Below are positions 12,741 to 63,382 of a stretch of DNA of 64,000 bases, one piece after another. Position 1 is the stretch's first letter; each line of letters opens with the position of its first letter. The DNA is taken from assembly GCA_035279905.1 (NCBI GenBank), contig DATEGZ010000200.1, positions 1 through 64,000 of the forward strand. The letters run 5' to 3'. Under the pieces are notes generated by a model. It ran no database searches, was not told where the DNA came from, and saw only the letters and a program-made list of their open reading frames with translations. Both the position numbers and the translations under genes were made by a program. Source of the stretch: Vicinamibacterales bacterium. Its GTDB lineage: Bacteria; Acidobacteriota; Vicinamibacteria; Vicinamibacterales; SCN-69-37.

Positions 12741-12743
12741 TTT

Positions 12744-18019: not shown

Positions 18020-18025
18020 GCAGCG

Positions 18026-18151
<126 letters not shown>

Positions 18152-18154
18152 TCT

Positions 18155-33275: not shown

Positions 33276-33360
33276 GGCGGCGTTTCACCGACCCGCCGTG
33301 TCGCTTCACCGATTCGAGGGATATCCGCGGCCAGTCATCGCGTATCAACGACAGAGACGC

Positions 33361-38171: not shown

Positions 38172-38305
38172 TGATCCTTGTGGTTCCGGGGTTCCGGGGT
38201 TCCGGGGTTCCGAGGTTCCGGGGTTCGCTGGCCACGACAGCGGTCTGCAAGACGTGATCACGATCGGCAGAACCCCGGAACCGCGGAACCTCGGAACCCC
38301 GGAAC
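38162..38305. repeat. Family-2 GGTTCCGG-array hairpin element, full copy
   Basis: Left arm GTGGTTCCGGGGTTCCGGGGTTCCGGGGTTCCGAGGTTCCGGGGTTCGCTGG. Loop contains GACGTGATCACGATCGG. Right arm CAGAACCCCGGAACCGCGGAACCTCGGAACCCCGGAACC. Lies between the LytTR stop (38171) and the VWA stop (38306). Confidence 0.85.
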
Positions 38306-40252: not shown

Positions 40253-40262
40253 GTTATTGGTT

Positions 40263-40287
40263 CCGAGGTTCCCCGGAACCCTTATTG
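40263..40287. repeat. Family-2 mini hairpin between the tandem VWA genes
   Basis: GGTTCCGAGGTTCCCCGGAACC. Confidence 0.5.
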
Positions 40288-44748: not shown

Positions 44749-44755
44749 CGACACC

Positions 44756-44802
44756 GATCAGGCACCAGGCACCAGGCACTAGCACTTGATCGGTGCGATT
44801 TC
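44756..44802. terminator. Hairpin with a GGCACCA repeat loop
   Basis: CACCGATCA-(GGCACCAGGCACCAGGCACTAGCACT)-TGATCGGTG, between the anti-sigma gene and the DUF4139 gene. Confidence 0.4.
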
Positions 44803-44821
44803 CTGAGAGGAGACGTGTCCC

Positions 44822-46300
44822 ATGTCCGCCCGATACTTGATTGCTCCCGTCGCGCTGTTGCTCGCTGGTGGAATCGTCGGTGAAGTCCGGCGCACGCCGG
44901 CGGATCCGGTGACGACGACCGTCACCGCGGCTGAACAGAACGCGACGAGCACGCTCGACGATCAGACCGAGCTCGCCGTCACCGTGTACAACTCCGACAT
45001 CGCGCTCGTGCGCGACGTCCGCGCGCTCACGCTCGGGCGCGGCACGTCGGATCTGCACTTCATGGACATCGCGGCGACCGTCAACCCCGCGACGGTGCAC
45101 TTCCGATCGCTCTCCGAGCCGTCGCGCGTGAGCGTGCTCGAGCAGAACTACGAGTACGACCTGCTCGAGCCCGACAAGCTGCTGCGCAAATACGTCGGCA
45201 AGGAGGTCACGCTGATTCGCACGATCCAGGATCAGGGCCGATCGCGCGAGGAGACGGTGAAGGCGCATCTCCTCTCCTACAACAACGCGCCCGTGTGGCA
45301 GATCGACGGCGAGATCGTGACAGGCGCGCGGTTCGAGTCGATCAAGTTCCCCGAGCTGCCGGGCAATCTCTACTCGCGGCCGACGCTGATCTGGACGCTC
45401 TCGAACACCGGCGGCACGCAGCACAAAGTCGAAGCGTCGTACCTCGCGGGCCAGCTCGCGTGGAACGCGGACTACGTGCTCACGGTCGGGCGCGACGACA
45501 AGGCCGCGGACATCGACGGCTGGGTCACGCTTCGAAACGGCAGCGGGACGTCGTTCAAGAACGCGTCACTGCAACTGGTCGCCGGCGACCTCAACCGCGT
45601 GCGCCAGCAAATCGGCCGGATGATGGACGAGGCGAAGATGACGCGGGAGGTCGCGGCCGCGCCGGCGATGTCTCAGGAATCGTTCTCGGACTACCACCTC
45701 TACACGCTCGGCCGAAAGACGACGATCAACAACGCGGAGACGAAGCAGGTCAGCATGCTCGGCGCCACCGGCTTCCCCGTCATCAAGCGCTACGTCGTCG
45801 ATGGCCAGGACTTCTACTACCGCAACGCGCAGCACCCCGGCGCGCCGTTGAAGGATCTCGTGGCGGTCTACTACCAGTTCAAGAACGAGCAGACGTCGGG
45901 CCTCGGCATGCCGATGCCGGCCGGCAACGTGCGCGTCTACCAGGCGGACTCCCGCGGCGGCATCCAGTTCGTCGGCGAAGACCACATCAGCCACACGCCG
46001 AAGGACGAGACGATCAACATCAAGATCGGCAACGCCTTCGACGTCGTCTGTGAGCGCAAGCAGACGGACTTCCAGAAGATCGCGCCGGGCGTCTATGACG
46101 TCGAGTTCGAGATCACCCTGCGCAACCACAAGGCCGTCCCGGTGAGCGTCGAAGTGAACGAGCCCATCGGCGGCACCTGGCGGATGCTCCAGTCCACGCA
46201 CCAGTGGACGAAGACGGATGCCTGGGCGGCGCAGTTCAAGGTGCCGGTGCCCGTCGATGGTACGTCGGTGCTTCGCTACAAAGTGCGCGTCACTTACTAG
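44822..46300 (+). CDS. DUF4139/DUF4140-family conserved hypothetical protein
   Basis: GAGAGGAG Shine-Dalgarno. N-terminal transmembrane/signal segment. Architecture and length (492 aa) are typical of DUF4139. Confidence 0.5.
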   Translation: MSARYLIAPVALLLAGGIVGEVRRTPADPVTTTVTAAEQNATSTLDDQTELAVTVYNSDIALVRDVRALTLGRGTSDLHFMDIAATVNPATVHFRSLSEPSRVSVLEQNYEYDLLEPDKLLRKYVGKEVTLIRTIQDQGRSREETVKAHLLSYNNAPVWQIDGEIVTGARFESIKFPELPGNLYSRPTLIWTLSNTGGTQHKVEASYLAGQLAWNADYVLTVGRDDKAADIDGWVTLRNGSGTSFKNASLQLVAGDLNRVRQQIGRMMDEAKMTREVAAAPAMSQESFSDYHLYTLGRKTTINNAETKQVSMLGATGFPVIKRYVVDGQDFYYRNAQHPGAPLKDLVAVYYQFKNEQTSGLGMPMPAGNVRVYQADSRGGIQFVGEDHISHTPKDETINIKIGNAFDVVCERKQTDFQKIAPGVYDVEFEITLRNHKAVPVSVEVNEPIGGTWRMLQSTHQWTKTDAWAAQFKVPVPVDGTSVLRYKVRVTY

Positions 46301-46307
46301 GCACGGC

Positions 46308-46413
46308 GGATTAACTTAAAACTTAGAACTAAGAACTTAGAACTTCGGAGTACACACGCGTCACGCGTGACGCTCTGAAGTTCTAAGTTTGAAGTTCTAA
46401 GTTCTAAGTTGAT
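46308..46413. repeat. Family-1 tandem-heptamer hairpin element, copy C
   Basis: GATTAACTTAAAACTTAGAACTAAGAACTTAGAACTTCGGAG - loop TACACACGCGTCACGCGTGACGCTCT - GAAGTTCTAAGTTTGAAGTTCTAAGTTCTAAGTTGATC. The right arm is identical to copy B. Confidence 0.85.
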
Positions 46414-46467
46414 CCCGGCCCCTAACCTCCCGGCAGGCCAATACGTCTAAGCTCGACGTATCGACCT

Positions 46468-46824
46468 ATGACGCAGCCCGTCGACCCACGACACTATCTT
46501 CCCCTCTCGCCCCAGCAGTTCCACATCCTGCTGGCCCTCGAGGGCAATGACCGGCACGGCTACGGCATCATCCTCGACGTCGCACGGCGGACGGATGGGG
46601 CGCTGCGGATGGGCACGGGCACGCTCTACACCGCCATGGCGCGGCTGGTGGCGCTCGAGCTCGTGGCGGACAGCGGCCGTGAGGACGAGCGACGCCGCTA
46701 CTACCGGCTGACACCGCTCGGCCGGCGGGTGCTGGTGGCCGAAACCGCGCGCCTCGAGGCGCTGGTCCGCGACGCGCACCGGCAGGGCGTGCGCGGGCCC
46801 GCGCCGGCACGGACCCGATCATGA
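46468..46824 (+). CDS. PadR-family transcriptional regulator
   Basis: LSPQQFHILLALEGNDRHGYGIILDV...LYTAMARLVALELV...YYRLTPLGRRVL. Confidence 0.85.
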   Translation: MTQPVDPRHYLPLSPQQFHILLALEGNDRHGYGIILDVARRTDGALRMGTGTLYTAMARLVALELVADSGREDERRRYYRLTPLGRRVLVAETARLEALVRDAHRQGVRGPAPARTRS

Positions 46825-49463
46825 TCGCGCGCCTGCTGGCGGGAGTCGCGCGGCCGCTCCACCGCGGCCTGCTTCGCCTCGCGCCGCCCGACGTGCGCGC
46901 GCAGTACCGCGCCGAAATGGGCCGGACGTTCGACGCGATGCTCGACGTCGCGTCGTGTCACGGCAGCTGGGCGGTGCTCGCGCTGCTCATCCGCGAATTC
47001 ATCGACATCCTGCACGCGCGGCGGTCGCCCGCCGCGGCGGAGGCGCTCATGTCATCTCACACCGATCCGGAACCCCGTGTGTGGCGCGCCGCGCGCCTGG
47101 CTCAGGCCACGCGGTCGCTCTTCCGCCGGCCGGCATTCACCGCCACGGCGCTCTTCGCCCTCGCCGCCGGCACGGCCGCGACGACGACGGTGTTTGCGAT
47201 TGTGGATACGGTCGTGATCAAGGCGCTGCCGTATCCGGACGCCGATCGACTCGTCAACGTGCAGGAAGCGAGCCCGGCCGCGAATGCGCGCGTGAGCCTG
47301 GTCGGGCCGGCGCGGCTCGAAGACTGGCAGCGCATGACCCGAAGTTTCGAGGCGGTGTCCGGGTACTACAGCGAGGCCGTGACCGACACGAGCGTCGCCC
47401 AACCCGAGCGGCTCGACGGCCGCCGCGTGGCGCCGCGCTTCTTCACCGTCTTCGGGACAAATCCAGTCGTCGGCCGGACGTTCACGGACGCGGAAGAGCA
47501 CTTCGGCGGACCGCTCGCGGCGGTGGTGAGCGAGCAATTCTGGGCGCGCCGTTTTCAGCGCAATCCACAGGTCATCGGCCGCGCGTTGATGATCGGCGGC
47601 CAGGCGTTTCCGATCGTCGGCGTCATGCCGGCCGCCTTCACGAGCAGCGTCGACGTCTGGCTGCCCGCGCAGTTCGCGCCGGGTCTGCTCGCGTTCCGCG
47701 AGTCCCGATTTCTCTCGGGCATCGGCCGGATGAAACCGGGCGTCACGCTCGAGCAGGCACACGACGATCTTGATCGCGTGCAGCGCGAGCTCGGCGCGCA
47801 GTTTCCGAAGACGGATGCCGGCTGGTCGGTCACGCTCTGGGACATGAAGGCGTTCCGGCTCGGCGACCGCAGCCGCGGGCTCTGGCTGGTCTTCGGTGCG
47901 GTCGGCCTGCTCTGGCTGATCGCGATGACGAACGTCGCAGGGCTGGTGCTGGTCGAGACGCACCGGCGCGCGCGCGAGCTCGCTATTCGTCTGGCGATCG
48001 GTGCATCGCGCGGACACATCGTCGGCGTCGTCGTGCAGGAGGTGCTGGTCGTCGCGATGCTCGGCAGCGCGCTGGGCACGGTCGTCTCGATCTGGCTCGT
48101 CGGCGTCGTCAAATCACTGTTCACGACGCTGCCGCGCGTGTCGGAGCTCGCGATCGACTGGCGGGCCGCCGCGTTTGCCGCGATCACGGGCATCGTCGCG
48201 GCAGGCGTGTGCGGGCTGGTGCCGGCGCTCGTCGCGACCCGTCATCGGCCGGCGTCGCTCGTGGCGAGCGGCGGAAGAGTCGTTGCGGGCGGTGCGCATC
48301 GGTGGCAGCGAGGGCTCGTCGCTGCGCAAGTAGCGCTCAGCTTGCTGTTGTCGGCGTCGGCGGCGCTGCTGCTGCGCAGCTATTACAACCTCACGCACGT
48401 GGATCCGGGGTTCGCGACAGAGGGCACCGTCACGTTTCACGTCGGCGCGCGGTGGGACGAGGACCGCACGCGCGTCGGACAACTGCAAGCGTCGCTGCTC
48501 GAGTCGCTCGGCCGGATGCCGGGCGTGCAGGCCGCCGGGTTCGTCAACTTTCTGCCGGCGACGGGAGGCACGCTGCGATTCAGCGTGCGCGTCGAAGGCC
48601 TCGCGGGGACCGATGCCAACGGGACAATGCAGACCGGCCAACGAACGATTAGCCCCGATTACCTTCGCGCGCTGGGCGTGCCGCTCGTCACGGGCCAGTG
48701 GTGTCGGCCGATCTCGACGGACATGAACCAGCGAACGGGCGTTCTCGTCAGCCGATCGTTCGTCGAGAAGTTCGCGCAGGGCCAGAACCTCATCGGGCGC
48801 GAGCTGACGTTCCCGGAGTTCCGAACGCCGAACACGATCGTCGGCGTCGTGGAGGACATGGCGGAAGATGGGCCGCAAGCGGCGCGCGCGCCGTATGTCT
48901 ACACGTGCCTGGCCGCGGGTTCGTGGCCGGACCCGAACTACGTCGTGCGCACGAACGACGTCGCGGGATTCATCGCCAACCTCGCGCCGGCGGTGCATCA
49001 ACTTGATCCGTCTCGCGCGATCTTCGGCGTGCGTCCGCTCGGCGACGTCCTGCACGACGCGGTCGAAGCGCCGCGGCTCAATGCGGGCATGATCGGCGTG
49101 TTCGCCGGCGGCGCATTGTTGCTCGCGGCGGTCGGGCTGTACGGATTGTTCACGCTGCTCGTGTCGGAATCGCGGCGCGAAATCGGCGTCCGGCTGGCGC
49201 TCGGCGCCGCGCCACGGCAGGTCGTGCAGCTCGTCTTCGCCGATGCCGGACGGCTGCTGGGCATCGGCATCGTGGCGGGCCTCGCGCTCGCGATCCTGGG
49301 CAATCGCACGCTCGGCAGCATGCTCTTCGACGTCGGGCCGCTCGATCCGATGACGCTCGTCACCGCGACGCTGACGCTTGCCGCGGTCGCCGCGTGCGCG
49401 ATCGCGATTCCGGCGATTCGGGCCGCGCACGTCCCGCCAACTGAAGCATTACGTACGGAGTGA
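46821..49463 (+). CDS. ADOP-type duplicated FtsX/MacB permease (Acidobacterial duplicated orphan permease)
   Basis: ATGA overlap with PadR. 880 aa with two MacB-like periplasmic domain plus FtsX four-transmembrane-helix modules. An N-terminal permease-prefix helix. PadR-ADOP is a standard pairing in Acidobacteria. Confidence 0.8.
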   Translation: MIARLLAGVARPLHRGLLRLAPPDVRAQYRAEMGRTFDAMLDVASCHGSWAVLALLIREFIDILHARRSPAAAEALMSSHTDPEPRVWRAARLAQATRSLFRRPAFTATALFALAAGTAATTTVFAIVDTVVIKALPYPDADRLVNVQEASPAANARVSLVGPARLEDWQRMTRSFEAVSGYYSEAVTDTSVAQPERLDGRRVAPRFFTVFGTNPVVGRTFTDAEEHFGGPLAAVVSEQFWARRFQRNPQVIGRALMIGGQAFPIVGVMPAAFTSSVDVWLPAQFAPGLLAFRESRFLSGIGRMKPGVTLEQAHDDLDRVQRELGAQFPKTDAGWSVTLWDMKAFRLGDRSRGLWLVFGAVGLLWLIAMTNVAGLVLVETHRRARELAIRLAIGASRGHIVGVVVQEVLVVAMLGSALGTVVSIWLVGVVKSLFTTLPRVSELAIDWRAAAFAAITGIVAAGVCGLVPALVATRHRPASLVASGGRVVAGGAHRWQRGLVAAQVALSLLLSASAALLLRSYYNLTHVDPGFATEGTVTFHVGARWDEDRTRVGQLQASLLESLGRMPGVQAAGFVNFLPATGGTLRFSVRVEGLAGTDANGTMQTGQRTISPDYLRALGVPLVTGQWCRPISTDMNQRTGVLVSRSFVEKFAQGQNLIGRELTFPEFRTPNTIVGVVEDMAEDGPQAARAPYVYTCLAAGSWPDPNYVVRTNDVAGFIANLAPAVHQLDPSRAIFGVRPLGDVLHDAVEAPRLNAGMIGVFAGGALLLAAVGLYGLFTLLVSESRREIGVRLALGAAPRQVVQLVFADAGRLLGIGIVAGLALAILGNRTLGSMLFDVGPLDPMTLVTATLTLAAVAACAIAIPAIRAAHVPPTEALRTE

Positions 49464-49543
49464 GTGTGGTTCCGGGGTTCCGCGGTTCACTGGCACCGTC
49501 ACGCGAACCCCGGAACCTCGGAACCCCGGAACCCCGGAACCAC
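49462..49543. repeat. Family-2 GGTTCCGG-array hairpin element, copy 2
   Basis: GAGTGTGGTTCCGGGGTTCCGCGGTTCACTGG - loop CACCGTCACGCG - AACCCCGGAACCTCGGAACCCCGGAACCCCGGAACCACC. Immediately after the ADOP stop. Confidence 0.8.
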
Positions 49544-49559
49544 CAGTAAAATCGAGTGC

Positions 49560-51377
49560 TTGTCGTTTCAACTCACTCCCGAAGCCAGACGACGATGGGC
49601 CTGGCGCCTGGCCGTGGCGCTGGTCGTCGGGTACGCGGCGTGGCTGCGGCTCGTCATCCTCGTCGAGCGATTCGGCCCGTTCGATCATCCCGGCTGGCTC
49701 GTCACGCTCTCCCACGTCGTCGAGGCGCCCAAGCCGATGCTCGCGCCCGCGTCGTGGGTCTGGGCCAAGAGCGACCCGCCGTACGTCGGCGGCGACCCCA
49801 TCAACTACCTGAAATTCGCGCGCGAGCTTCCGAGCTTCTACGGCGCGACGGTTCGCGAGCCGCTGTTTCTTGAAGTCATCCGCATCTTCTTCAAGGTCAC
49901 GGCCAATCAGGACGTCGCGATCAGCTTTGCGTCGCTGACGTTCTCGGTCCTATGCGTGCTCGCGACGTATCTCGTTGGCGGTCGAGCGATCTCGCGCCCG
50001 GTCGGTCTTGCGGCCGCGTTGGCGCTCGCGATCGAGCAGGAGTTCGCGGCGTGGGCACCGGATGGCTGGCGTGACGAGACGTTTGCGGCGTTCATCCTGC
50101 TGACCGCGTGGGCGCTCCTCCGGTTGAAAGACAAACGCACGTGGCAGAACGCCGTGATCGTGGGCGTGGTCGGCGCGGCGGCGTGCCTGACACGCATCAC
50201 GTCGGTCAGCGTCGTAGTCCCCGGCTTGATCTGGGTGGCGTGGCCGCGCGAGCGGGCCGCCTGGCGGACGTCAGCGCGGTACGCCGGAATCGCCGCGCTG
50301 GTCACGGCGGTGCTGGTCGCGCCGTACCTCGTCAACTGCTACCGCCAGACCGGCGACGCGCTCATCGCGATCAACTACCACACGCGGTTCTATCTGGCGG
50401 CTGAAGGCACGATCACCGACGCGCCGCCCGGCGCGCTGCGCTACGCCGCGGCCAAGTTTCGCGCGCATCCGATCGGCGAGACGGACACGGCCGTACGCGG
50501 TCTCGTGCAGTATCCGTTCGTCACGAAGTTTCGCGGGTTCTACGGCTGGTGGCCGGCGCTCGGGCCGATCCTGCGCGCGCTCTCGGCCCTCGGCCTGCTG
50601 ATCTGGATCTGGCAGCCGCGCGGGCGGTTCCTGCTGCTCGTGCTGATCTCGTCGCTCGCGCCGTACATGATCACGTGGACGCTGCAGGGCGGCGGCGAGT
50701 GGCGGTTCACGATGCACGCGTACCCGTTCTACCTGCTGGCCGCATTCGCGGCCGCGGCCTGGCTCGTGGCGGCCGCGCGATCGCTCGTCGCGAATCGTTC
50801 AACGGCGTTCGCGTCGTGGCGCGCGCAGCGCGTTGGCGTGAAGGCGCTCGCCACCGCGGGCCTGGTCGCGAGCGGCTGGCTGGCGAGCTTCTGGGCGCCG
50901 TACTTCGTCGCGCGCGAGGGCTTGCTCGCCGGCGAGCCCACGTCGGTCGCGGCGGGCGACAACGACGGCGTGTTCTTCAGCACAGGCTGGACGGGCCTCG
51001 TGCACTCCGGCATGGTCACGTCACGGTTCGCGAATGCCGAGCGGGCCACGCTGCGCGTGCCCTTTCCGGAGCGCCGCGGCTACCACCTCGTGCTGAGGAT
51101 GGACGCGATTCCCGACGCCAACGGATCGCCGCAGCGCGTGCGTCTCTTCATCGACGACCGGCCCTCCGGCGTGTTCGATCTGGCGTGGAATGAGGAGCGC
51201 GTCGGCGCGCTTACGCTCGATCTGCCGGCGAGCGAGGTCTCGCCCGGGCGCGCGCGGCTCGATTTCGTCGCCGATCGCGTCGCGCCGCTGGGGCCCGCGG
51301 AAGCGTCGTTCCCCGACCTGCCCGCCTCGGCGCCCGTCGCGTTTCGGCTGTGGTACGTGCGGGTTACTCCTCAATAA
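49560..51377 (+). CDS. Polytopic membrane protein with a C-terminal soluble domain, putative GT-C-fold glycosyltransferase (ArnT/PMT-like)
   Basis: About 10 transmembrane helices followed by a soluble domain of about 150 aa. The start is uncertain (TTG 49560 or GTG 49614). The first ~30 codons of the track ORF are a translation of the repeat element. Confidence 0.5.
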   Translation: MSFQLTPEARRRWAWRLAVALVVGYAAWLRLVILVERFGPFDHPGWLVTLSHVVEAPKPMLAPASWVWAKSDPPYVGGDPINYLKFARELPSFYGATVREPLFLEVIRIFFKVTANQDVAISFASLTFSVLCVLATYLVGGRAISRPVGLAAALALAIEQEFAAWAPDGWRDETFAAFILLTAWALLRLKDKRTWQNAVIVGVVGAAACLTRITSVSVVVPGLIWVAWPRERAAWRTSARYAGIAALVTAVLVAPYLVNCYRQTGDALIAINYHTRFYLAAEGTITDAPPGALRYAAAKFRAHPIGETDTAVRGLVQYPFVTKFRGFYGWWPALGPILRALSALGLLIWIWQPRGRFLLLVLISSLAPYMITWTLQGGGEWRFTMHAYPFYLLAAFAAAAWLVAAARSLVANRSTAFASWRAQRVGVKALATAGLVASGWLASFWAPYFVAREGLLAGEPTSVAAGDNDGVFFSTGWTGLVHSGMVTSRFANAERATLRVPFPERRGYHLVLRMDAIPDANGSPQRVRLFIDDRPSGVFDLAWNEERVGALTLDLPASEVSPGRARLDFVADRVAPLGPAEASFPDLPASAPVAFRLWYVRVTPQ

Positions 51378-51384
51378 GGCACGG

Positions 51385-51545
51385 GTTCTTCAGGTACGAC
51401 CGGTACGTCAGGTACTCGGAACGCACTGGCGCTGGCCAACTTATTTGGTTTTTCTAAAGAAGCGGACTGAGATGCAGGTTCCTCGTACCCGACGTACCGG
51501 TCGTACCTCTCGTACCTGTCGAACCCTGCCCTGTCCGGAAACGCC
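51385..51545. repeat. Family-4 GGTACGNC-array hairpin with a long AT-rich loop
   Basis: Arm CAGGTACGACCGGTACGTCAGGTACTCGGAAC pairs with GGTTCCTCGTACCCGACGTACCGGTCGTACCTCTCGTACCTGTCGAACC. The loop is about 55 nt and contains TTATTTGGTTTTTCTAAAGAAG. Confidence 0.7.
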
Positions 51546-51602
51546 CTGTAGACCGGTGCTATAGTCAATCGAATTCCCCGTTCGATTTCAGGAGGCATTC
51601 CC

Positions 51603-52319
51603 ATGCGCTTGGTTCGTCCCTTTGCAATTGCAGTCGCTTTCGCGTGTCTCATGCCTGCCGTGCCAGGCGCCCAGATGGACCCGGACCGCGTCGTCCCGAA
51701 CGGCGGGATTTCAGCCGCCGGCTGGCAGGGAAAGATTGATGCTGGCTCGGTCGCGCAAGGCCGAACGATCAACGACTCGAAGTTCGCGCAGGAAGGCGCC
51801 GCCCTGCACCTGATCATTGGACCGGCTGCCGTGTATTGGAATCCCGCAAACACGGCCAGCGGCGACTACACGATCAAGGGCACCTTCAAGGAACCGAAGA
51901 TGCAGGATGCGAACAGCCATCCGCATCCGTACGGCATCTTCATCGGCGGCCACAACATGGGCACCGACAAGATGAGCCTCGTGTACTGCATTGCGTATGG
52001 CGATGGCCGCGCGCTCGTACGCGGGTTCAATCCAACGGCAGGTCCGCCCACGGGCAACGGCCATGGCGTCTTCACGCCGATGCGCGCCGCGGCAAACGCC
52101 GCCGTGAAAAAGGTGGCGCCCGGTGAGTCGGTCACGCAGGATATTTCGTGGACGGTGAAGGGCGACTCCGCCAGCTGCACGATTAACGGCACGGTCGTCG
52201 CGACCTACACCAAAGCCGATCTCGTCGGACCGGACAAGCTCGAGAGCTTCGACGGCGTGTATGGCATCCGCATCAGCCACAACGTCGAAGCGATCGTCAC
52301 GGGCTTCGGCAAGCAGTAA
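51603..52319 (+). CDS. Secreted hypothetical protein (DUF1080 / LamG-like jelly-roll)
   Basis: Signal peptide MRLVRPFAIAVAFACLMPAVPGA. Size and beta-rich composition match the DUF1080 3-keto-disaccharide hydrolase-like family. Confidence 0.45.
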   Translation: MRLVRPFAIAVAFACLMPAVPGAQMDPDRVVPNGGISAAGWQGKIDAGSVAQGRTINDSKFAQEGAALHLIIGPAAVYWNPANTASGDYTIKGTFKEPKMQDANSHPHPYGIFIGGHNMGTDKMSLVYCIAYGDGRALVRGFNPTAGPPTGNGHGVFTPMRAAANAAVKKVAPGESVTQDISWTVKGDSASCTINGTVVATYTKADLVGPDKLESFDGVYGIRISHNVEAIVTGFGKQ

Positions 52320-52322
52320 GAC

Positions 52323-52470
52323 TGGGGGCACTGGGTCATTGGGTCATTGGGTCATTGAGCTATTGGGTTATTGAGGGTGAACGCTCGCATCCAGACCGGG
52401 CGTTTCGCTCCCAGGACGCGGCCCCAATAGCCCAATGACTCAATGGCCCAATGGCCCGATGGCCCAACGG
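52323..52470. repeat. Family-3 GGGTCATT-array hairpin element
   Basis: Arm CACTGGGTCATTGGGTCATTGGGTCATTGAGCTATTGGGTTATTGAGGG. Complementary arm CCCCAATAGCCCAATGACTCAATGGCCCAATGGCCCGATGGCCCAACGG. Fills the convergent gap from 52319 to 52472. Confidence 0.8.
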
Positions 52471-52471
52471 C

Positions 52472-53251
52472 TCAGTACTTCTCCGCGATCCGCTCGGCCT
52501 TCAGCTTCTTCCCGCGGTCCTTCACCTTCCGCTTCGGCAGCTTCACCTTCTCGCTCGGCGCGGTCTTGTACGGAATCTGCTTGAGCAGGTGCGTGATGAG
52601 ATTGAGGCGCGCGCGCTTCTTGTCGTTCGAGTCCACGACGAACCACGGCGCGTGCTTGGTGTGGGTGGCCTCGAACATCTCGTCGCGCGCCCACGTGTAG
52701 TCGTTCCAGCGCGTGTACGACTTCAGATCCATCGGCGAGAGCTTCCAGACCTTGCGCGGATCGTTGATGCGCCCCTCGAGACGGCGCGTCTGCTCGTCCG
52801 GGCTCACCTCGAGCCAGTACTTCAACAGGATCACGCCGGACGCGACGATCGCCTTCTCGACGTTGGGGGCCACACGCAGGAACTCCTTCGCCTGGTCCTC
52901 GCTGCAGAAGCCCATGACGCGCTCGACGCCCGCGCGGTTGTACCAGCTGCGATCCCAGATGACGATCTCGCCTGCCGCCGGCAGATGCGGCAGATAGCGC
53001 TGGATGTACATCTGGCTGCGCTCGCGATCGGTGGGCGTGGGCAGAGCGATGACCCGGAAGATGCGCGGGCTGACGCGCTCGGTGATCGCCTTGATCGTCC
53101 CGCCCTTGCCCGCGCCGTCGCGGCCCTCGAAGACGATGCAGATCTTCAGCCCTTTGTGCACGACCCATTGCTGGAGCTTGACCAGCTCGCCGTGCAGCTT
53201 CTCCATCTTCTTGTCGTAGTCCTTGCGTTTGAGCTTCTTGTCGTCGCCCAC
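52472..53251 (-). CDS. ppk2: Polyphosphate kinase 2 (PPK2 family)
   Basis: VFEGRDGAGKGGTI Walker A. WDRSWYNRAGVERV and lid motifs are typical of PPK2. GTG start. Confidence 0.85.
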   Translation of the reverse strand: MGDDKKLKRKDYDKKMEKLHGELVKLQQWVVHKGLKICIVFEGRDGAGKGGTIKAITERVSPRIFRVIALPTPTDRERSQMYIQRYLPHLPAAGEIVIWDRSWYNRAGVERVMGFCSEDQAKEFLRVAPNVEKAIVASGVILLKYWLEVSPDEQTRRLEGRINDPRKVWKLSPMDLKSYTRWNDYTWARDEMFEATHTKHAPWFVVDSNDKKRARLNLITHLLKQIPYKTAPSEKVKLPKRKVKDRGKKLKAERIAEKY

Positions 53252-53280
53252 GGCACCCTCATTTCATCCCGACGCCCGCG

Positions 53281-53640
53281 TCACTGGCTGAGCCAGGCGC
53301 GCGCGTCGGTCATTTTGTCGGTCGGAAAGAACTCCACGGGCGCCCGCCGCAGGTCGGCGACGGCAAACATGAGCGCTTCGCTGCGCCAGATCTCGTCGCC
53401 CACGATGGCGATGCGATCGATTTCGTCGCCGTGCGCCATGTAGAAGCTCAGGTCGCTCCAGTTGTCGGCGTCCGCCCAGCCCTCGAACCGCTCGAGAAGC
53501 ACCAGCAGCTTCACGTGTCCGTGGCTCGCGATCTCGCGCGCCAGCTGCTGCTGACACTTCTCGAACTCCGCCTTCCGCATAACGCCGCTCGCGTTGAGAC
53601 GGTAGGTCGATCCGCCCTCGGGCGTCAGGGTGAGGGACAT
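53281..53640 (-). CDS. SpoIIAA-like / STAS-fold small protein (DUF3478-like)
   Basis: 119 aa. KLLVLLERFEGWADADNW...IDRIAIVGDEIW pattern. Confidence 0.5.
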   Translation of the reverse strand: MSLTLTPEGGSTYRLNASGVMRKAEFEKCQQQLAREIASHGHVKLLVLLERFEGWADADNWSDLSFYMAHGDEIDRIAIVGDEIWRSEALMFAVADLRRAPVEFFPTDKMTDARAWLSQ

Positions 53641-53662
53641 CGCGATCCTTCCCGACCGCCGC

Positions 53663-55420
53663 CTAGGCGGTCTGCAGCTCTGGTTCGGGTTCCGGCAGAT
53701 CGCCGGTGTCGGCCCGCAGGAACCGCCGCTGGTTCGGACGGATCGTGGCGAGCAGTTCCTTCCGGGTCTTGATCTTGATCGGGCGGCCCAGGTAGATCTT
53801 GCCCATCTTCCCCATCAGCGATTCCGGGAACGCGCTCGCGAACATGAACATCGGCCACGTGAAGTTCGGGCCGTTGAGCTTGCGCAGCTTCCACAGCCAC
53901 AGGCCAATCGCGCCCGTACGCCACGCCATCGGACCCCACCAGCTCATCTGACCCGGCCGGAGGTTCATCTTCCAGCACTTCATCATCAGCTGCCACTGGA
54001 GAGGCGTGAGATTGCGCGTCTCGGTGACGCCCTTCGCCTGCTCGAGCCGCGTGTCGTGCAGCGGCGTGAAGATCGACGGGATGAAGAACGCGAACAGCCC
54101 GCGCCGCTCGACTTCGTAGATCAAATCGAGCGTCGCCTTCGTGTCCTCGTCCGTCTCGCCGGGGCTGCCGATGATGAGCGTCATCGCCGGGAACCAGTTG
54201 TTCTGGTTGAGCACCGTCAACCCGTTGACGACGACGCTCTGCCAGTCGTCGATCGAGAACGGCACGCCTTTGCTCGGCATGATCTGTTTGCCGAGCCGCA
54301 CCGATCCCGTCTCGAGGCCGATGAGCGGCACGAGCGCGCGCTTCTCCGGATGCGTGCTCAGTACAGGCAGCCGAATCGGGCTCTTGTCGAGGCACAGCTT
54401 CGAGAGGCGCTCGATCAACACCGGATCGACGACCGCCGGCGCGATCGTCGCGTGGCTCAGCACGTGTTGCTCGACGCCGGGCGTGCGAATGATCTCGCCG
54501 TAGAGATCGAGCAAGGCCTCGCGGTTCGGGAAATAGAACGGCGTCTCGGTCCGGACCTGGCCCCAGATGAACATGTCCTCGGTCGCGAGCGAGATCTGCT
54601 TGTTGCCGTCGCGCACGTTGGCGCGGACGCCGGCCATGATGTGGCTCTTCGGCACGTCGATCTGCGGATTCAGATCGGGCACGCAGAACTGGCACCGCCG
54701 GCCGCAGCCGGTCGTCATCTCGACGACGCCGAAGGTCGTGCGCTTGTCGGGCACGAGGATGGCCTCGCGATCCTTCGGGTGCCCGACTTCGAGTTGCCGC
54801 GGCAGGTCCTCGCCGCGGATCGCCTTGTCGAAGAGCGTCATCGTGTCGGCCGACTCGCTCCGCCCTTCGACGACGCAGTCCACGCTGAGCATGTCCCAGG
54901 CGTTGTTCTGCGTGATCTGCCAGCCGCCCGATCCGCCGACGATCACCTTGAAGTTCTTGCGGTGCGGACTGTTCTTCACGATCTCGAACATCTTGGTCGC
55001 GTAGAACGAGTTGATGGGCTGCTTCGACTCGCCGAAGATCGACGTGTAGACGCCGGCCGCGAACGTCACGCCGAGCGGGTTGTGCGTCGAGATCGCCACC
55101 ACGCGCGTCTTCGGGCCGATGAACTTGTGCAGGTCGTCCGGATAGCAGGCGACGATGTCGTCTTCGGAAAACGAGCGCAGCAGCGACTTCTCGAGCACGC
55201 GGACCCCCGCCGGCATGTACCGCGCGGAGCCGTCGGCGTTGTGCTCGACTTCACGCCACTTGGGATACTTGCGATTGAGGATGCCTTCGAGCCACATGGG
55301 CAGCGAGGCCATGCTCATCTGGATGAAGTACCCGGCGTGGTCGATCGTCTCGGTGAAAGGCGCCGTGAGGACGATCAGCGCCCCCTCGGTGTGTTCCCGC
55401 TGTTCAACGTCGTCATTCAT
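53663..55420 (-). CDS. B12-binding-domain radical SAM enzyme
   Basis: CGRRCQFC (Cx3Cx2C) at about residue 250, preceded by a Rossmann-like B12-binding-type N-terminal domain. ATG overlaps the stop of the upstream protease gene. Confidence 0.7.
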   Translation of the reverse strand: MNDDVEQREHTEGALIVLTAPFTETIDHAGYFIQMSMASLPMWLEGILNRKYPKWREVEHNADGSARYMPAGVRVLEKSLLRSFSEDDIVACYPDDLHKFIGPKTRVVAISTHNPLGVTFAAGVYTSIFGESKQPINSFYATKMFEIVKNSPHRKNFKVIVGGSGGWQITQNNAWDMLSVDCVVEGRSESADTMTLFDKAIRGEDLPRQLEVGHPKDREAILVPDKRTTFGVVEMTTGCGRRCQFCVPDLNPQIDVPKSHIMAGVRANVRDGNKQISLATEDMFIWGQVRTETPFYFPNREALLDLYGEIIRTPGVEQHVLSHATIAPAVVDPVLIERLSKLCLDKSPIRLPVLSTHPEKRALVPLIGLETGSVRLGKQIMPSKGVPFSIDDWQSVVVNGLTVLNQNNWFPAMTLIIGSPGETDEDTKATLDLIYEVERRGLFAFFIPSIFTPLHDTRLEQAKGVTETRNLTPLQWQLMMKCWKMNLRPGQMSWWGPMAWRTGAIGLWLWKLRKLNGPNFTWPMFMFASAFPESLMGKMGKIYLGRPIKIKTRKELLATIRPNQRRFLRADTGDLPEPEPELQTA

Positions 55421-56943
55421 TTCGGTGACTGCAATCTCATCTCATGGCGGAGCAAGTCGATGGACACTTTGTATCGTCCCAGGAACTGGTGCCCGACGAT
55501 CCCGCCGATGTTGAAGCCAAGAAGCGCGCTGGGCGCATCGAGGTTGAGGACCACGACCGACGCCTGCTGGAACTGGGCGCCCTTCGCGAACTCGATGTCG
55601 ACGAACGGCAGCAGGAACGCCGCGCGGTCCCACCCCGACGTCCCGTACACACGGACCGGCACCCGCCGGACCTCTGGATCGACCGGTAATTGCGCCGCGA
55701 CCGTGCGGCTGATCGACATCGCTTCGCCGCCCGTGTCGACGACGAACCCGGCGGGCGACGAGCCGTTGACCATCCCGCGCACGACCGCCAGCCGCTGAAC
55801 TCTGAGCGGCAGCGTGAAATCCGCCGGCTCGTTCGGCAGCTCCCGCGCCATCGTGAGCGTGTGATTGACGTAGTCGAGGCTGACCGACAGCCCGAAGACC
55901 AGCGGCGAGAAGCCCTCGCCCTCACGAGCCAGCTGGCTCTTGATCGGTGGGTCCTTGATCAGGCACGGCACGTTGCGCACGTGGAGCGCGCCGATCTCGA
56001 GATCGTCCATGCGCGCGATCTGCAGGCTGCGGTAGCCGATGCCGAGGTCGCCGATGCCGGCGCTCTGGAGCGCCGCGAACGCCTGCACGTGGTTGCGGCT
56101 GGCGACTTCGGTCGAGAGCACGGCCTGATCGGCGCCGGTGTCCACGGCGAGCTCAATCGCCGGGCCGCCATTGACGCGGCCGGTCACGAGCACGCGGCCC
56201 TCTGACACCCGGAACGGCATCGTGTACGTCTCGGCCTTACTGACGATCTCGAGCGGGATCTTGTTCTTGAACGTCGCGAGAAACTTCGACTGCGTCTTCG
56301 CCCACTTCACCAGGTCCGTGTCGTCGCGCTTGGGCAAGAGCTCGACGTACTTGAGGAGCGCATTCGACGCGTCGGTGAACTTGTGCGTCTGCTCGTAGAT
56401 CGAGGCGAGCGTGTACTGGTAGTTCGGCTCCGTCGGATTGAGCGAGATCGCGCGGGTGACGTCCGCCATCGCCTCGTCGAACCGGCGCTGGGCCGCGAGC
56501 GACCGCCCGCGGCCGTGCAGCGCGCCCGGATCCTGGGGATTGATCTTCAACGCGTCCGCGTAGCGAGCCTCGGCGTCGAAGAACAAGCCGAACGTCCACA
56601 GCGAGTCCGCGTGGATGGACACCGCGGCGGCGTTCTGCGGATCGCGCGCGGCGATGTCGGCGCCTTCCTTCGCGCCGTCCTTGAAGAGCCCGAGCCGCAG
56701 TAGCGATTTGACCACGCCGGCGCCAGCGCGCACGCGCACGTTCGCGTCGTCGGTCTCGCGCGCGCGGCGGTAGACGCGCAACGCGTCGCCGTAGTGCGAG
56801 CCGGCCATGAGCACGTCGCCGGCCTGCAACAGCTCGGTGGCCGCAGGTAACGGCTGCTGCTGCGCGGACAGGGCCAGCGTGCAGGCCGCGGCCGCGATCA
56901 CACCAATGTGCAGGCTCGGTGAGAGCCGTCCGGACGAGAACAT
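55417..56943 (-). CDS. Secreted TPR protein with two retropepsin-like (clan AA) aspartic protease domains
   Basis: GAGGAGGAG Shine-Dalgarno before the ATG at 56943. Signal peptide MFSSGRLSPSLHIGVIAAAACTLALSA. TPR region. Two D-T/S-G-A motifs (VDTGADQAVLS, VVDTGGEAMSIS). Confidence 0.65.
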   Translation of the reverse strand: MFSSGRLSPSLHIGVIAAAACTLALSAQQQPLPAATELLQAGDVLMAGSHYGDALRVYRRARETDDANVRVRAGAGVVKSLLRLGLFKDGAKEGADIAARDPQNAAAVSIHADSLWTFGLFFDAEARYADALKINPQDPGALHGRGRSLAAQRRFDEAMADVTRAISLNPTEPNYQYTLASIYEQTHKFTDASNALLKYVELLPKRDDTDLVKWAKTQSKFLATFKNKIPLEIVSKAETYTMPFRVSEGRVLVTGRVNGGPAIELAVDTGADQAVLSTEVASRNHVQAFAALQSAGIGDLGIGYRSLQIARMDDLEIGALHVRNVPCLIKDPPIKSQLAREGEGFSPLVFGLSVSLDYVNHTLTMARELPNEPADFTLPLRVQRLAVVRGMVNGSSPAGFVVDTGGEAMSISRTVAAQLPVDPEVRRVPVRVYGTSGWDRAAFLLPFVDIEFAKGAQFQQASVVVLNLDAPSALLGFNIGGIVGHQFLGRYKVSIDLLRHEMRLQSPK

Positions 56944-57113
56944 TACTCCTCCTCGCAAGTCTCGCCGCCGGAGACCCGGCTGGCGCGTACGTCGCGGAGG
57001 GGGTAACCGCGCATAGTTAGTAAGGGTAACGAGGGTATCACACGGCTCGAGGCTTGCCCGGTCATGGCAGGTATAGAATCCGGGCCACGAAGCCAATCGA
57101 TGCGAAGCAGGGC

Positions 57114-59540
57114 ATGATCGGCCGTACGCTGTCGCACTACACCCTCGTGAGCGAACTGGGCCGCGGAGGCATGGGTGTCGTCTACCGCGCCATCGATGTC
57201 ACTCTGGGCCGCGAAGTCGCGATCAAGGTGCTTCTGCCGGAGTTCGTCGCGGATCCCGAGCGCCGGCACCGCTTCGTTCAGGAGGCCCGGGCGGCCGCGG
57301 CGCTCGAGCATCCGCACATCGGTGCTGTGTACGAGGTCGATGAAGCCGATGGCATGACGTTCATCGCGATGGAGCTCATCCGCGGTGAGCGCCTCAAGGA
57401 GGTACTCGCGCGCAGCGGTCTCTCAAGCAGCCGGGCGATTCAGCTGGCGGTCGAGATCGCCGAAGCATTGGGCAAGGCACACGACAAAGGCATCGTCCAC
57501 CGCGATCTCACGCCCTCCAACGTCGTCATCACCGAGGACGGTCACGCGAAGGTCATCGACTTCGGGTTGGCCAAGCTGGTCGAGCCGATAGCCGGTCCGA
57601 CGAGCGAAGCGGAGACCAGAGCGCGGACCGGAAGCGGTCTCGTCATGGGCACGACGGCCTACATGTCTCCGGAGCAGGCGCGCGGCAGGCCGGCTGACCA
57701 CCGGTCGGACGTGTTCAGCCTGGGTCTCGTTCTATTCAAGATGCTCTCTGGCGATCTCGCCTTCAACGGCCCCAGCGGCGCGGAGACGCTGAACGCGATC
57801 ATCAACCAGCCCGATCCACCGCTGAAGCTGTCGTTCGAAGGTGAGCCCGCCATCGAGCTTCGGCGGATCGTGCACAAGTGCCTCGCGAAGGATCCACGCG
57901 ATCGCTACCAGACGATGAAGGATCTCGCCGTGGATCTCCGCGAGGCGGCGAGGCGGCTGGACGCGACGTCGACCGCGCCGGTCACGGCTGTGCGGTCCGG
58001 GACCACGCGTGCTCGTCACTGGATCCCTTTCGCCGTCGTGGCCGCGATCCTGGCCATCGTTGCGGGGTACGGCTGGTATCGGGCGCACGGATCCGCGACG
58101 GCTCCAGTCGAAACGGCCCGGAAGCGGATCGCCGTGCTGCCATTTCAGAACCTCGGCGCGCCCGAGGATGAGGACTTCGCCGCCGGCGTTTCTGAGGAAA
58201 TCATGAGCCGGCTGTCTGCTGTCAGCCGGCTGGCCGTCATCTCACGAAACAGCGTGCTGCCGTACAAGAAAACCGACAAGAGCTCGCGCGACATCGGCAA
58301 GGAGCTCGATGTTGACTACCTCGTCGTCGGCACCGTGCGTTGGCAGCCCGCCAAGGACGGACCTGGCCGCGTTCGCGTCACGCCGCAGCTCATTCACGTC
58401 GCGGACGACACTCAAGTCTGGTCCGACACGTACGAGCGCGGCTTCGAGGAAGTGTTCGCTGTCCAGTCTGATATCGCAACACACGTGATTCAGGAGTTGA
58501 ACATCGCCGTGCTGGCCCTCGAGCAGACGATCATCAAGGGCCGGCCGATGCCAAACTTCGAAGCCTATCGCGAGTACTTACGCGGCTACTACACGGCCTA
58601 CCATGCTCCGCGTCCGGATAGCCGGGAGGCGTTGCAACACTTCGAGCGCGCCGTCGCACTGGATCCCGGGTTTGCCGCCGGCCACGCTGCCGTCGCAAAC
58701 ATGGCCGCGACAATGTTCTTCTACGACGAGGCCACGAGCGCCTTGGAGGACAAAGGGAATCGCGCCATCGAACGAGCTCTCGCGATCGATCCCAACTTGG
58801 CGGACGCATACCTGGCGCGCGGCACGTTCTTGTGGTCCCAACCGCACGGGTTCGCGCACGAACCAGCGCTGCGTGAGTATCACCGGGCGCTCGCACTGAA
58901 TCCCAGCCTGGCGGAGGGCCGAGTCGCAATCGCTCGGATCTACGAGCACATCGGCCTCCTCGATGAGGCACGGGAGCAGTTGACGCAGGCGCTCGCTCTG
59001 GACCCTGCCGCCGCCACAGCGAGGGGCCGCATCGAGCTGACCTACCTGTGGCAACACGACTACCAGCGAGTCGCAGAAATCGCGCGGTCGGCGGCCCCCA
59101 GCTGGTTCAAAGTCGAGATGCTCAGCTACCTTGGCCAGGATCAAGCCGCCCGAGACCTCGCCGCCACGCTTGCCCCCAATCCCTGGGTGCCGAATATGAG
59201 CTCGGGATTCAACATTGTTCTAATGGCGAAGCTAGGCCAGCACGAGGGCGTCAAGGCCGCGCTGCCGGTGCTGGAGAACCTCGCGCGAAACCCCCGAGGC
59301 CTCAGTCACTTCCACCACGCGCAGTACAGTCTCGGCCTCGCTCATGCGCTGCTTGGCCATAAGCGTGAAGCCGTCAGCTGGCTGCGCATGGCCGCAGCCC
59401 AGGGCTTTCCCTGCTACCCGTTCTACGCCAAGGATCCAAATCTCTCCGGGCTCAAGGGGGATCCGGATTTCGAGGCGTTCATGGCGGAATTGAAGGCGCA
59501 GTGGGAGCAGCTCCGAATCGAGGCCGCCAAGCACTCGTAA
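57114..59540 (+). CDS. Ser/Thr protein kinase with a transmembrane helix and a C-terminal TolB-N-like/TPR sensor region
   Basis: GRGGMGVVYRA...AIK, HRDLTPSNV and DFGLAK kinase motifs. Transmembrane helix WIPFAVVAAILAIVAGYGWY. Repeats in the C-terminal region. Confidence 0.85.
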   Translation: MIGRTLSHYTLVSELGRGGMGVVYRAIDVTLGREVAIKVLLPEFVADPERRHRFVQEARAAAALEHPHIGAVYEVDEADGMTFIAMELIRGERLKEVLARSGLSSSRAIQLAVEIAEALGKAHDKGIVHRDLTPSNVVITEDGHAKVIDFGLAKLVEPIAGPTSEAETRARTGSGLVMGTTAYMSPEQARGRPADHRSDVFSLGLVLFKMLSGDLAFNGPSGAETLNAIINQPDPPLKLSFEGEPAIELRRIVHKCLAKDPRDRYQTMKDLAVDLREAARRLDATSTAPVTAVRSGTTRARHWIPFAVVAAILAIVAGYGWYRAHGSATAPVETARKRIAVLPFQNLGAPEDEDFAAGVSEEIMSRLSAVSRLAVISRNSVLPYKKTDKSSRDIGKELDVDYLVVGTVRWQPAKDGPGRVRVTPQLIHVADDTQVWSDTYERGFEEVFAVQSDIATHVIQELNIAVLALEQTIIKGRPMPNFEAYREYLRGYYTAYHAPRPDSREALQHFERAVALDPGFAAGHAAVANMAATMFFYDEATSALEDKGNRAIERALAIDPNLADAYLARGTFLWSQPHGFAHEPALREYHRALALNPSLAEGRVAIARIYEHIGLLDEAREQLTQALALDPAAATARGRIELTYLWQHDYQRVAEIARSAAPSWFKVEMLSYLGQDQAARDLAATLAPNPWVPNMSSGFNIVLMAKLGQHEGVKAALPVLENLARNPRGLSHFHHAQYSLGLAHALLGHKREAVSWLRMAAAQGFPCYPFYAKDPNLSGLKGDPDFEAFMAELKAQWEQLRIEAAKHS

Positions 59541-59597
59541 CGCATTCATCGCCTCCGCACTCAACACTGCATCGTGCTACGCTCCGCTTCACAACCC

Positions 59598-63263: not shown

Positions 63264-63382
63264 TTCCGTACGCGCGTTTCCCGTGTAAATCAGCCCGTAC
63301 GCCCGGCCGCCGGCGCCGCCGGGTGGAAAGGACTACCTACCGTAGGCATTTCGTTCCCACTCGAAGTATCTTTCCAGTAACG

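Follow-up and report, generated by a model that had tools for sequence, protein, structure and literature searches.

The 64-kb window analysed here (64,000 nucleotides, contig DATEGZ010000200.1 of the metagenome-assembled genome of a Vicinamibacterales bacterium, phylum Acidobacteriota) carries at positions 52320-52471 a gap of 152 bases between two facing genes, which consists of one long hairpin with arms made of an 8-base unit repeated 5-6 times. The presence of an array hairpin between these convergent genes, noticed in an initial annotation of the sequence, was confirmed by Tandem Repeats Finder (TRF), an inverted-repeat search and RNA folding. The element is entirely intergenic, and no open reading frame (ORF) was found within its 45-nt spacer. 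The explanation that we favour, and to which we give about an even chance, is that 52320-52471 is an ORF-less, dispersed tandem-array hairpin of the form 5'-(GGGYCATT)n, unique spacer, (AATGRCCC)m-3', which would be shaped by slippage and by copying between the arms, and the RNA of which would mark or insulate the 3' ends of transcripts. Its nearest described kin are the hairpins of the STRR (short tandemly repeated repetitive) elements of cyanobacteria and the intervening sequences (IVSs) of 23S rRNA with an S23p ORF (PF05635).

TRF detected TGGGTCAT in 5.2 copies at 52332-52373 and CCCAATGG in 6.1 copies at 52423-52471, giving the layout 5'-(TGGGTCAT)x5.2, 45-nt spacer, (CCCAATGG)x6.1 for the element. 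The inverted-repeat search placed the arms at 52332-52376 and 52422-52466 (45 nt each, 45 nt apart, 82% Watson-Crick complementary). Read from the left, the TAA codon at 52317-52319 is followed by GACTGGGGGCAC, three copies of TGGGTCAT, TGAGCTAT, TGGGTTAT and TGAGG, and then by the GC-rich 45-nt spacer. Beyond the spacer come CCCCAATAG, CCCAATGA, CTCAATGG, CCCAATGG, CCCGATGG, CCCAACGG and CTCA, the final three bases of which are the stop codon of the PPK2 gene on the − strand. The initial annotation was mistaken in naming ATTGGGC as a unit of the right arm, since ATTGGGC is the complement of GCCCAAT. A pattern of two units, allowing up to two mismatches, has eight matches in the window, every one of them within the element, while 0.04 are expected. 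The parts of the element are as follows:

52318-52326, + strand: 5' half of the outer helix, AAGACUGGG, paired with 52471-52480 and overlapping the TAA stop (minimum free energy, MFE, structure)
52320-52331, + strand: two degenerate units, GACTGGGG GCAC
52332-52378, + strand: 5' arm, TGGGTCAT three times, then the variants TGAGCTAT, TGGGTTAT and TGAGGG (TRF, inverted-repeat search, fold)
52379-52420, + strand: unique GC-rich spacer with an inner 9-bp hairpin, then TTTCGCT (fold)
52421-52466, + strand: 3' arm, CCCAATAG, CCCAATGA, CTCAATGG, CCCAATGG, CCCGATGG (TRF, inverted-repeat search, arm comparison)
52471-52480, + strand: 3' half of the outer helix, CUCAGUACUU, overlapping the PPK2 stop at 52472-52474 and the last two codons (fold)

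The + strand RNA of 52315-52480 folds with −101.7 kcal/mol, compared with −59.9 ± 4.7 kcal/mol for shuffled sequences (z = −8.8; none of 200 shuffles was as stable), and the − strand RNA of the hairpin region with −81 kcal/mol (z = −6.4). In the MFE fold, the main stem pairs 52332-52378 with 52421-52466 (45 bp, including 7 G:U pairs), an outer 9-bp helix (52318-52326 with 52471-52480) spans both stop codons, and within the spacer 52379-52387 pairs with 52397-52405 in an inner hairpin of 9 bp, after which comes UUUCGCU. The arms are mirror copies unit by unit, including the order of the variants, with the TGAG variant in unit 5 of both, and their 8 differences in 40 positions are transitions throughout. 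Toward the coding borders the units grow degenerate. The G:U pairs are distributed 7:1 in favour of the + strand, an excess that may be due to a single variant amplified by slippage. Neither the window nor any of six related loci gave an Rfam match at gathering threshold. A relaxed Rfam scan of 52200-52600 returned a plant miRNA-precursor match, which was rejected as it lies far below threshold (36.9 vs 137 bits) and reflects hairpin shape only.

The hairpin fills the convergent gap exactly. Its extent from the TAA (52319) to the PPK2 stop (52472), as given in the initial annotation, agrees with both the ORF list and the independent gene calls on an identical contig (L002). The PPK2 stop reads TCA at 52472-52474, which is TGA on the − strand, and homologues of the other flanking gene were collected from 71 metagenome loci. 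The two genes are:

51603-52319, + strand: gene for a 238-aa protein with no Pfam match, TAA stop at 52317-52319 (ORF list, independent gene call on the identical contig L002)
52472-53251, − strand: PPK2 gene, 259 aa, convergent with the 238-aa gene (PF03976, E = 2.6e-95; gene call)

The architecture is not confined to this gap. The window (GC content 67.6%) holds, besides 52320-52471, at least seven more hairpins or arrays with units of 7, 8 and 9 nt, and these array hairpins, together with a palindrome at 12647-12745 that resembles the repetitive extragenic palindromes (REPs), are the longest inverted repeats present. The initial annotation had distinguished three families; their common architecture was corroborated, but a fourth family exists, the 9-mer CAGGTACGA hairpin at 51381-51530 in the neighbouring gap, whose unit is unique within the window. 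The other elements are:

18025-18152, + strand: AACTTAG (7-mer) hairpin, filling the convergent gap between the stops at 18019 and 18155
31290-31390, + strand: AACTTAG-family hairpin, ending at the stop of an ABC-ATPase gene (31388, − strand)
46308-46415, + strand: AACTTAG-family hairpin in a co-directional gap, after a DUF4139 stop (46300)
38172-38306, + strand: GGTTCCGG (8-mer) hairpin, filling a convergent gap
49466-49543, + strand: GGTTCCGG-family hairpin, just 3' of a MacB/FtsX stop (49463)
33227-33285, + strand: solo (one-armed) GGTTCCGG array in a divergent (promoter) gap
40258-40281: minimal GGTTCCGG-family palindrome, GGTTCCGAGGTTCC/CCGGAACC
51381-51530, + strand: 9-mer CAGGTACGA/TCGTACCTG array hairpin, just 3' of a PMT_2 stop (51377)

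According to the gene calls of the contig, each of the seven full hairpins begins 2-14 nt after the upstream stop. Four of them lie in convergent and three in co-directional gaps, and in the latter 50-75 nt remain before the next start. The rule that such hairpins occupy the whole gap between convergent stops, put forward in the initial annotation, thus holds in part: the architecture recurs, the hairpins abut stops and convergent gaps filled from stop to stop are also found in other genomes (L015, L036, L060, L071, L076, L180), but the three co-directional hairpins of the window do not follow it. In three Vicinamibacterales genomes the AACTTAG family has conserved ends (GGATC...GATCC) and a core, GATCACGCG, and both arm orders occur; the GGTTCCGG family has a conserved loop-proximal motif, GGTKCGCTGGCC.

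Smaller repeats accompany these families. The one-armed array at 33227-33285 and the left half of the 38172 hairpin have in common a 9-nt terminus, ATCCTTGT, and the inner motif GGTKCGCTGGC. At 44757-44797, right after the stop at 44748, there is a small hairpin, CACCGATC...GATCGGTG, with (AGGCACC)x3 in its loop, and a 7-mer of the GGCACYA type occurs in L062 and L106 as well. A family of small GC-rich palindromes (GGGCGCCC...GAGCTCGTCGAGGGGCGG-like) is common to the window (6058-6103) and L180 (6805-6832), where it adjoins an array hairpin. The REP-like family GACGCCGGGAGTAGTTTTACG...CGTAAAACTACTCCCGGCGTC (12647-12745; L109, 2008-2058; L110, 816-862) is at least 95% identical between genomes, and in relatives it fills the same gaps as the array hairpins of the window.

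The unit of the 52320-52471 element is widespread. When one genome per species was scanned for three GGGYCATT units in a row, at least 102 stretches were found. Among the matches listed, the arrays occur in Acidobacteriota (Terriglobia, Luteitalea, Chloracidobacterium, Pyrinomonadaceae), in Bacteroidota (cultured Mucilaginibacter species, Chitinophagaceae, Saprospiraceae) and in Armatimonadota, Anaerolineae, Tepidisphaeraceae, Ca. Binatia and others, and the genomes that bear them range in GC content from 30 to 73%. Variants of the unit differ almost solely by transitions. When 112 arrays were read on the strand that spells GGGYCATT, a complementary partner was found within 250 nt downstream in 57 and upstream in none, the rest being solo; a strict count of this polarity gave 25 vs 1, the single exception being an artefact. 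For solo arrays, a same-sense stop before the array is the commoner arrangement (19 vs 8). The acidobacterial metagenome-assembled genome (MAG) MFD02416, with at least 13 GGGYCATT loci (the window has one copy), contains ten hairpins that are alike in their arrays only, while the spacers (13-70 nt) and the flanks are unrelated. The two arms can be very unequal in length, e.g., 6.5 vs 27 or 18 vs 3 units. Other units that form array hairpins in the fetched loci are AATGTGGTC, ATTGCCG, ATTGCGCG, AAAATTG, AAGGTTT and GGCACTA.

The association with stop codons is also seen outside the window. In other genomes, where genes were delimited by rough calls based on GC content at third codon positions (GC3) and the longest ORF, the stop-side flank lies within 15 nt of the arm in 38 of 43 cases (median, 3 nt), and the start-side flank has a median of 31.5 nt despite the use of longest-ORF starts. 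Most such hairpins are situated in co-directional gaps, some of them a few nucleotides from the next longest-ORF start; convergent gaps are slightly over-represented and divergent ones slightly under-represented, a tendency weakened by the roughness of the gene calls. All-vs-all BLAST of the ORFs of about 100 array loci revealed no recurrent neighbouring family, with at most six loci sharing one. A phage origin was considered and rejected, as only 7 matches were found in 2.9 million viral contigs. In a Pyrinomonadaceae MAG (L065, 339-6924), four tandem paralogous genes are present with an array hairpin after each (ATTGCCG, GGGYCATT-type, ATTGCCG). Many contigs in public collections begin or end inside arrays (e.g., L008, L016, L031, L040, L053-L055, L058 and L074); the repeats evidently break short-read assemblies, and array copy numbers are therefore underestimated.

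Comparison with relatives demonstrated both inheritance and turnover of these elements. In strain L001 (99.9% identical) the element at 52320-52471 shows no difference at all, which makes this strain uninformative on strain variation; 11 of the 12 differences between L001 and the window fall within 40 nt (54397-54436) inside the radical-SAM gene and look like a short recombination or conversion tract. In two less close relatives, L109 (238-aa gene 95% identical at the protein level, flanking DNA 80-90% identical) and L110 (238-aa gene 77% identical), PMT_2 is followed by the 238-aa gene, a short gap and the radical-SAM gene. Neither carries the GGGTCATT hairpin, PPK2 or the SpoIIAA-like gene, so that the radical-SAM gene is the direct convergent neighbour of the 238-aa gene. 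The stretch 52320-53671 of the window, with the hairpin and these two genes, is missing as a whole at L109 4724-4810 and L110 807-877; thus, the hairpin stands at a breakpoint of gene content. The gap after the 238-aa gene is filled in L109 by a small TCCGGAGTCC-type repeat hairpin and in L110 by a palindrome of the 12647-12745 family. More distant homologues of the 238-aa gene (~50% identity) mostly have a textbook terminator (GC stem and T-tract) directly after the stop, and a few have other array hairpins. Synteny was also sought with PPK2 as the anchor: L105 and L108 are not syntenic, and in L106 synteny covers the PPK2 side, but neither the 238-aa gene nor the element is present.

Similar changes were observed at the other hairpins of the window. 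The slot taken in the window by the GGTTCCGG hairpin of 49466-49543 contains, in L109, an unrelated palindrome of the REP-like kind. The 9-mer hairpin at 51381-51530 is absent from L109 and L111, which have a 44-nt gap at this place. Its spacer aligns to this ancestral gap, apart from a 21-nt AT-rich insert, and the two 9-mer arrays therefore flank native sequence. The GGTTCCGG hairpin at 38172-38306 is kept at the orthologous gap of L180 (6830-6924; neighbouring kinase 84% identical), with ~3.5 arm units instead of the ~5 found in the window. Where the window has the minimal palindrome at 40258-40281, L180 has a complete hairpin of six units (8890-8985), which shows an extreme contraction or expansion at an orthologous site. 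Compared with L180, the solo array at 33227-33285 represents an insertion, which has no target duplication. A further relative (76-81% identity) has none of these three copies, but carries other array hairpins elsewhere. These comparisons show that related families are passed down at orthologous gaps with a changing number of units, and that one gap may hold different hairpin elements in close relatives, one having taken the place of another.

Presence or absence among relatives, multi-copy families and a pair of arms that structurally qualify as terminal inverted repeats would all suit a miniature inverted-repeat transposable element (MITE), i.e., a non-autonomous transposon whose transposase is encoded elsewhere and prefers terminator hairpins. 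The conserved ends and the GATCACGCG core of the AACTTAG family, as well as the GGTKCGCTGGCC motif of the GGTTCCGG family, point in the same direction. The GGGYCATT family, however, has no conserved spacer or ends even within one genome, its arms may be as unequal as 6.5 vs 27 or 18 vs 3 units, and one-armed copies are common. No target-site duplication was found: the flanks ...CAGTAA|GACTGG and GGCTCA|GTACTT have no common direct repeat, and there is none at the insertion of the solo array relative to L180. Together with the ancestral local sequence in the spacer of the 9-mer hairpin and the lack of a recurrent protein family beside the arrays (at most six of ~100 loci), this leaves a transposon of this kind highly improbable.

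The native sequence in the 9-mer spacer would instead fit a neutral by-product, in which a small local palindrome grows in place by slippage and template switching, without dispersal and without function, and survives only where it does no damage. The uniqueness of the 9-mer unit in the window, the mirrored arms, the degeneracy of units toward the coding borders and the lack of a sense-strand bias are all consistent with such an origin. For the GGGYCATT family, on the other hand, an independent local origin is very unlikely because the same octamer and the same polarity recur at more than 100 loci across phyla. Moreover, the preference for stop flanks exceeds what tolerance alone would give, as promoter-side gaps are larger yet contain fewer copies. 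As an account of the element as a whole, neutral growth in place is therefore judged decidedly unlikely.

Hairpins with long loops, and these alone, brought to light a link to a protein family. Between thyA and folA in Mucilaginibacter, arrays ~700 nt apart enclose a PF05635 gene (23S_rRNA_IVP, 'four helix bundle protein'; E = 1.3e-23), and M. rigui has a second such site (L006). All four homologue loci that were reached via the protein alone proved to be bracketed by arrays: L183 adds a new site, found in M. terrigena, L184 and L187 represent the thyA-folA site in further species, and in L185, a Bacteroidota MAG, the arrays are built of the related 7-mer AGTCATT. In a Ca. Binatia MAG (L099), a local hidden Markov model (HMM) search also detected a PF05635-like ORF flanked by (GGGTCCTTT)n and (AATGACCC)n, and it found one without arrays in L094. 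In total, GGGTCATT-type arrays bracket PF05635 (S23p/Avd-like) genes at no fewer than four independent Bacteroidota sites and one Ca. Binatia site. The array elements with a PF05635 gene are:

L004, 738-1516
L005, 1434-2220
L006, 4711-5238
L083, 2728-3562
L183, 2865-3405
L184, 2975-3420
L185, 2905-3390
L187, 2965-3405
L099, 430-1000

In the 23S rRNA IVS of Coxiella burnetii, the loop contains an S23p ORF, RNase III cuts the terminal stem of 28 bp, and the tandem heptamers beside this stem differ in number among strains; ORF-less and decaying forms of such IVSs exist (PMC4990558). PF05635 proteins resemble Avd, which in diversity-generating retroelements is the accessory protein that partners a reverse transcriptase (PMC10053308).

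Regarding function, the initial annotation suggested bidirectional terminators, or elements that target terminators when they insert. The former would be an intrinsic (Rho-independent) terminator, the hairpin of which itself releases RNA polymerase arriving from either gene. As far as position is concerned, this suggestion was supported: the convergent gap is occupied from stop to stop, and the array hairpin takes the terminator's position, because distant homologues of the 238-aa gene carry canonical terminators in the same slot. A scan for consensus terminators over 44000-63999 found 11 sites vs 9.5 in shuffled sequences, none of them at array hairpins or gene ends; as this 20-kb stretch has no canonical terminators above chance, something else must end its transcripts. 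Hairpin-only ('I-shaped') transcript 3' ends have been reported in a genome of >70% GC (PMC8914203). The details of the hairpin argue otherwise. No T-tract after the stem and no A-tract before it were found at either end of 52320-52471 on either strand, and consensus scans for a canonical terminator or promoter at the element returned nothing above chance. A 45-bp stem with a 45-nt spacer is remote from terminator geometry. The class is located mostly between co-directional genes, often a few nucleotides from the next longest-ORF start, where a strong terminator would silence the downstream gene, and in Mucilaginibacter it lies inside the thyA-folA pair, where efficient termination would be harmful. 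Intrinsic termination by the hairpin itself thus appears unlikely. Targeting of terminators on insertion is possible, and fits the turnover of elements in one gap.

We return to the dispersed tandem-array hairpin as the preferred explanation. Its arrays would gain and lose units by replication slippage, and templated copying from arm to arm (quasipalindrome template switching) would keep the arms complementary; in E. coli, such template switching is an established mutational process. Expansion would continue until sequence under selection is reached, which could explain why the element exactly fills its gap, the arrays having presumably grown up to the coding sequence on both sides. A transcript from either gene would contain the same imperfect duplex of ~55 bp, which, if intervening sequences and the hairpin-only 3' ends of GC-rich bacteria are a guide, is likely to serve as a substrate of RNase III and/or to stop 3' exonucleases. 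The RNA of the hairpin thus probably marks or insulates 3' ends: the duplex would define and insulate those of both convergent transcripts in place of canonical intrinsic termination.

Several observations weigh against this explanation. Elsewhere, about half of the GGGYCATT arrays are solo, without a partner arm, and the hairpin is therefore not obligatory. Approximately 9-18% of array hairpins lie in divergent gaps. Comparison of sense and antisense folding energies in 23 co-directional hairpins, with genes delimited by the rough GC3 and longest-ORF calls, gave 12 vs 11 (Wilcoxon p = 0.85); as the sense strand is no consistently better folder, there is no indication that selection acts on one strand's RNA. 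The function proposed above derives from position and analogy only. A PF05635 gene was detected neither in the window nor in the Vicinamibacterales loci by the local HMM search, the reach of which is limited, and what would tie the window element to the ORF-bearing form is only the common unit and polarity. Finally, slippage and template switching by themselves do not account for an octamer and a polarity that are constant over genomes of 30-73% GC, which leaves room for a sequence-specific factor.

Such a factor, acting in trans, could either bind the arrays or produce them. It might be a single-strand binder of units that contain ATTGG/CCAAT, or a PF05635 (Avd-like) protein that lays units together with a polymerase. 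The conservation of unit and polarity over the whole GC range, the bracketing of PF05635 genes by arrays at a minimum of four independent sites, the likeness of PF05635 to Avd as a partner of reverse transcriptase (PMC10053308) and the position of solo arrays after same-sense stops (19 vs 8) are all in its favour. However, neither a PF05635 gene nor a reverse transcriptase was seen in the window, and the other families of the window, judging from their unrelated 7-, 8- and 9-nt units, would require several factors. On balance, control by a trans factor of this kind seems very improbable. A wider proposal, still improbable in our view, is that the array hairpins are the ORF-less majority of a cross-phylum, IVS-like family whose autonomous form has a PF05635 (four-helix-bundle) gene between the arrays, and that sequence-specific machinery in trans recognises the units or adds them at the foot of native hairpins near stops, the PF05635 protein possibly acting with a polymerase or a reverse transcriptase. 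If true, this would explain why the octamer and the polarity 5'-GGGYCATT...AATGRCCC-3' are the same in Acidobacteriota, Bacteroidota, Ca. Binatia and others, and it would provide a function for the large PF05635 protein family and an origin for both STRR repeats and rRNA intervening sequences.

Irrespective of the mechanism, array hairpins sit in the expected terminator slots of a genome without canonical terminators, and they matter for operon prediction and the annotation of 3' untranslated regions for that reason; they matter for MAG assembly because many contigs end inside arrays. Both the short tandem-repeat hairpins of cyanobacteria and the rRNA intervening sequences have been on record from about 1990 onward; to our knowledge, neither has an accepted origin, spreading mechanism or function. 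As elements of this kind are plentiful in soil Acidobacteriota and Bacteroidota, one octamer unit retains its polarity across phyla and this unit brackets an S23p/Avd-like gene in some lineages, three old puzzles, namely the STRR repeats, the intervening sequences and the PF05635 family, become testable as one.

Among known systems, STRR sequences are similar in that short intergenic tandem units, often arranged as inverted arrays that fold to a hairpin, are present in multiple copies and in several unit families per genome. The unit GTCATTG (TTGGTCA) of L071 is a 7-mer version of the present one, and TTGGTCA is presumably STRR2. STRRs are 7-bp cyanobacterial tandem repeats capable of forming hairpins, which are found between genes such as hupS and hupL in Nostoc/Anabaena; their function is unknown, and a role in transcript stability has been proposed (PMC2670836). 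The hupS flank of Nostoc contains ttgtcag x3 arrays and inverse ctgacta arrays (PMC2408588, Table 3). Another STRR hairpin of Nostoc/Anabaena is that of hoxW. The window differs in having an 8-nt unit (7 and 9 nt in other families) and in belonging to an acidobacterium instead of a filamentous cyanobacterium, and the STRR papers examined describe no strict polarity, no abutment on stop codons and no PF05635 cargo. The S23p IVS of Coxiella burnetii resembles the window element in its terminal inverted repeats, which form a long stem, and its loop ORF for a four-helix bundle is matched by the array elements of Mucilaginibacter, a Bacteroidota MAG and a Ca. Binatia MAG; the window element, in contrast, is devoid of an ORF and is flanked by protein genes instead of being inserted in a 23S rRNA helix.

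REPs are thought to shield upstream mRNA from 3' exonucleases. Like the array hairpins, the REP, BIME and REPIN (PMC3116915) elements of enterobacteria and pseudomonads are dispersed intergenic palindromes located mainly at gene 3' ends and between convergent genes, and the true REP-like family of the window (12647-12745) swaps places with array hairpins in relatives. REPs, however, are single short imperfect palindromes (~20-40 nt) of conserved sequence with a cognate REP-associated tyrosine transposase (RAYT), whereas the arms in the window are tandem arrays, and no RAYT was seen. TAACTGA heptamer arrays, common to Beggiatoaceae, Cyanobacteria and Bacteroidetes, offer another example of one short tandem unit in distant phyla, the transfer of which is unexplained; they too show whole-unit indels among strains and are missing from the orthologous gaps of close relatives (PMC4679880). 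They are mostly direct repeats just upstream of starts, with one inverted set, while the elements described here are mostly hairpins just downstream of stops. 'I-shaped' terminators (PMC8914203) are likewise stable hairpins without a U-tract at gene ends in a GC-rich genome, but have short unique stems instead of stems of at least 45 bp that are built of repeats and belong to dispersed families. A literature search on the exact repeat sequence found no paper. The element at 52320-52471 is an STRR-like or intervening-sequence-like repeat hairpin in a phylum for which no prior description was found, and the cross-phylum polarity rule and the PF05635 cargo are the most interesting leads.

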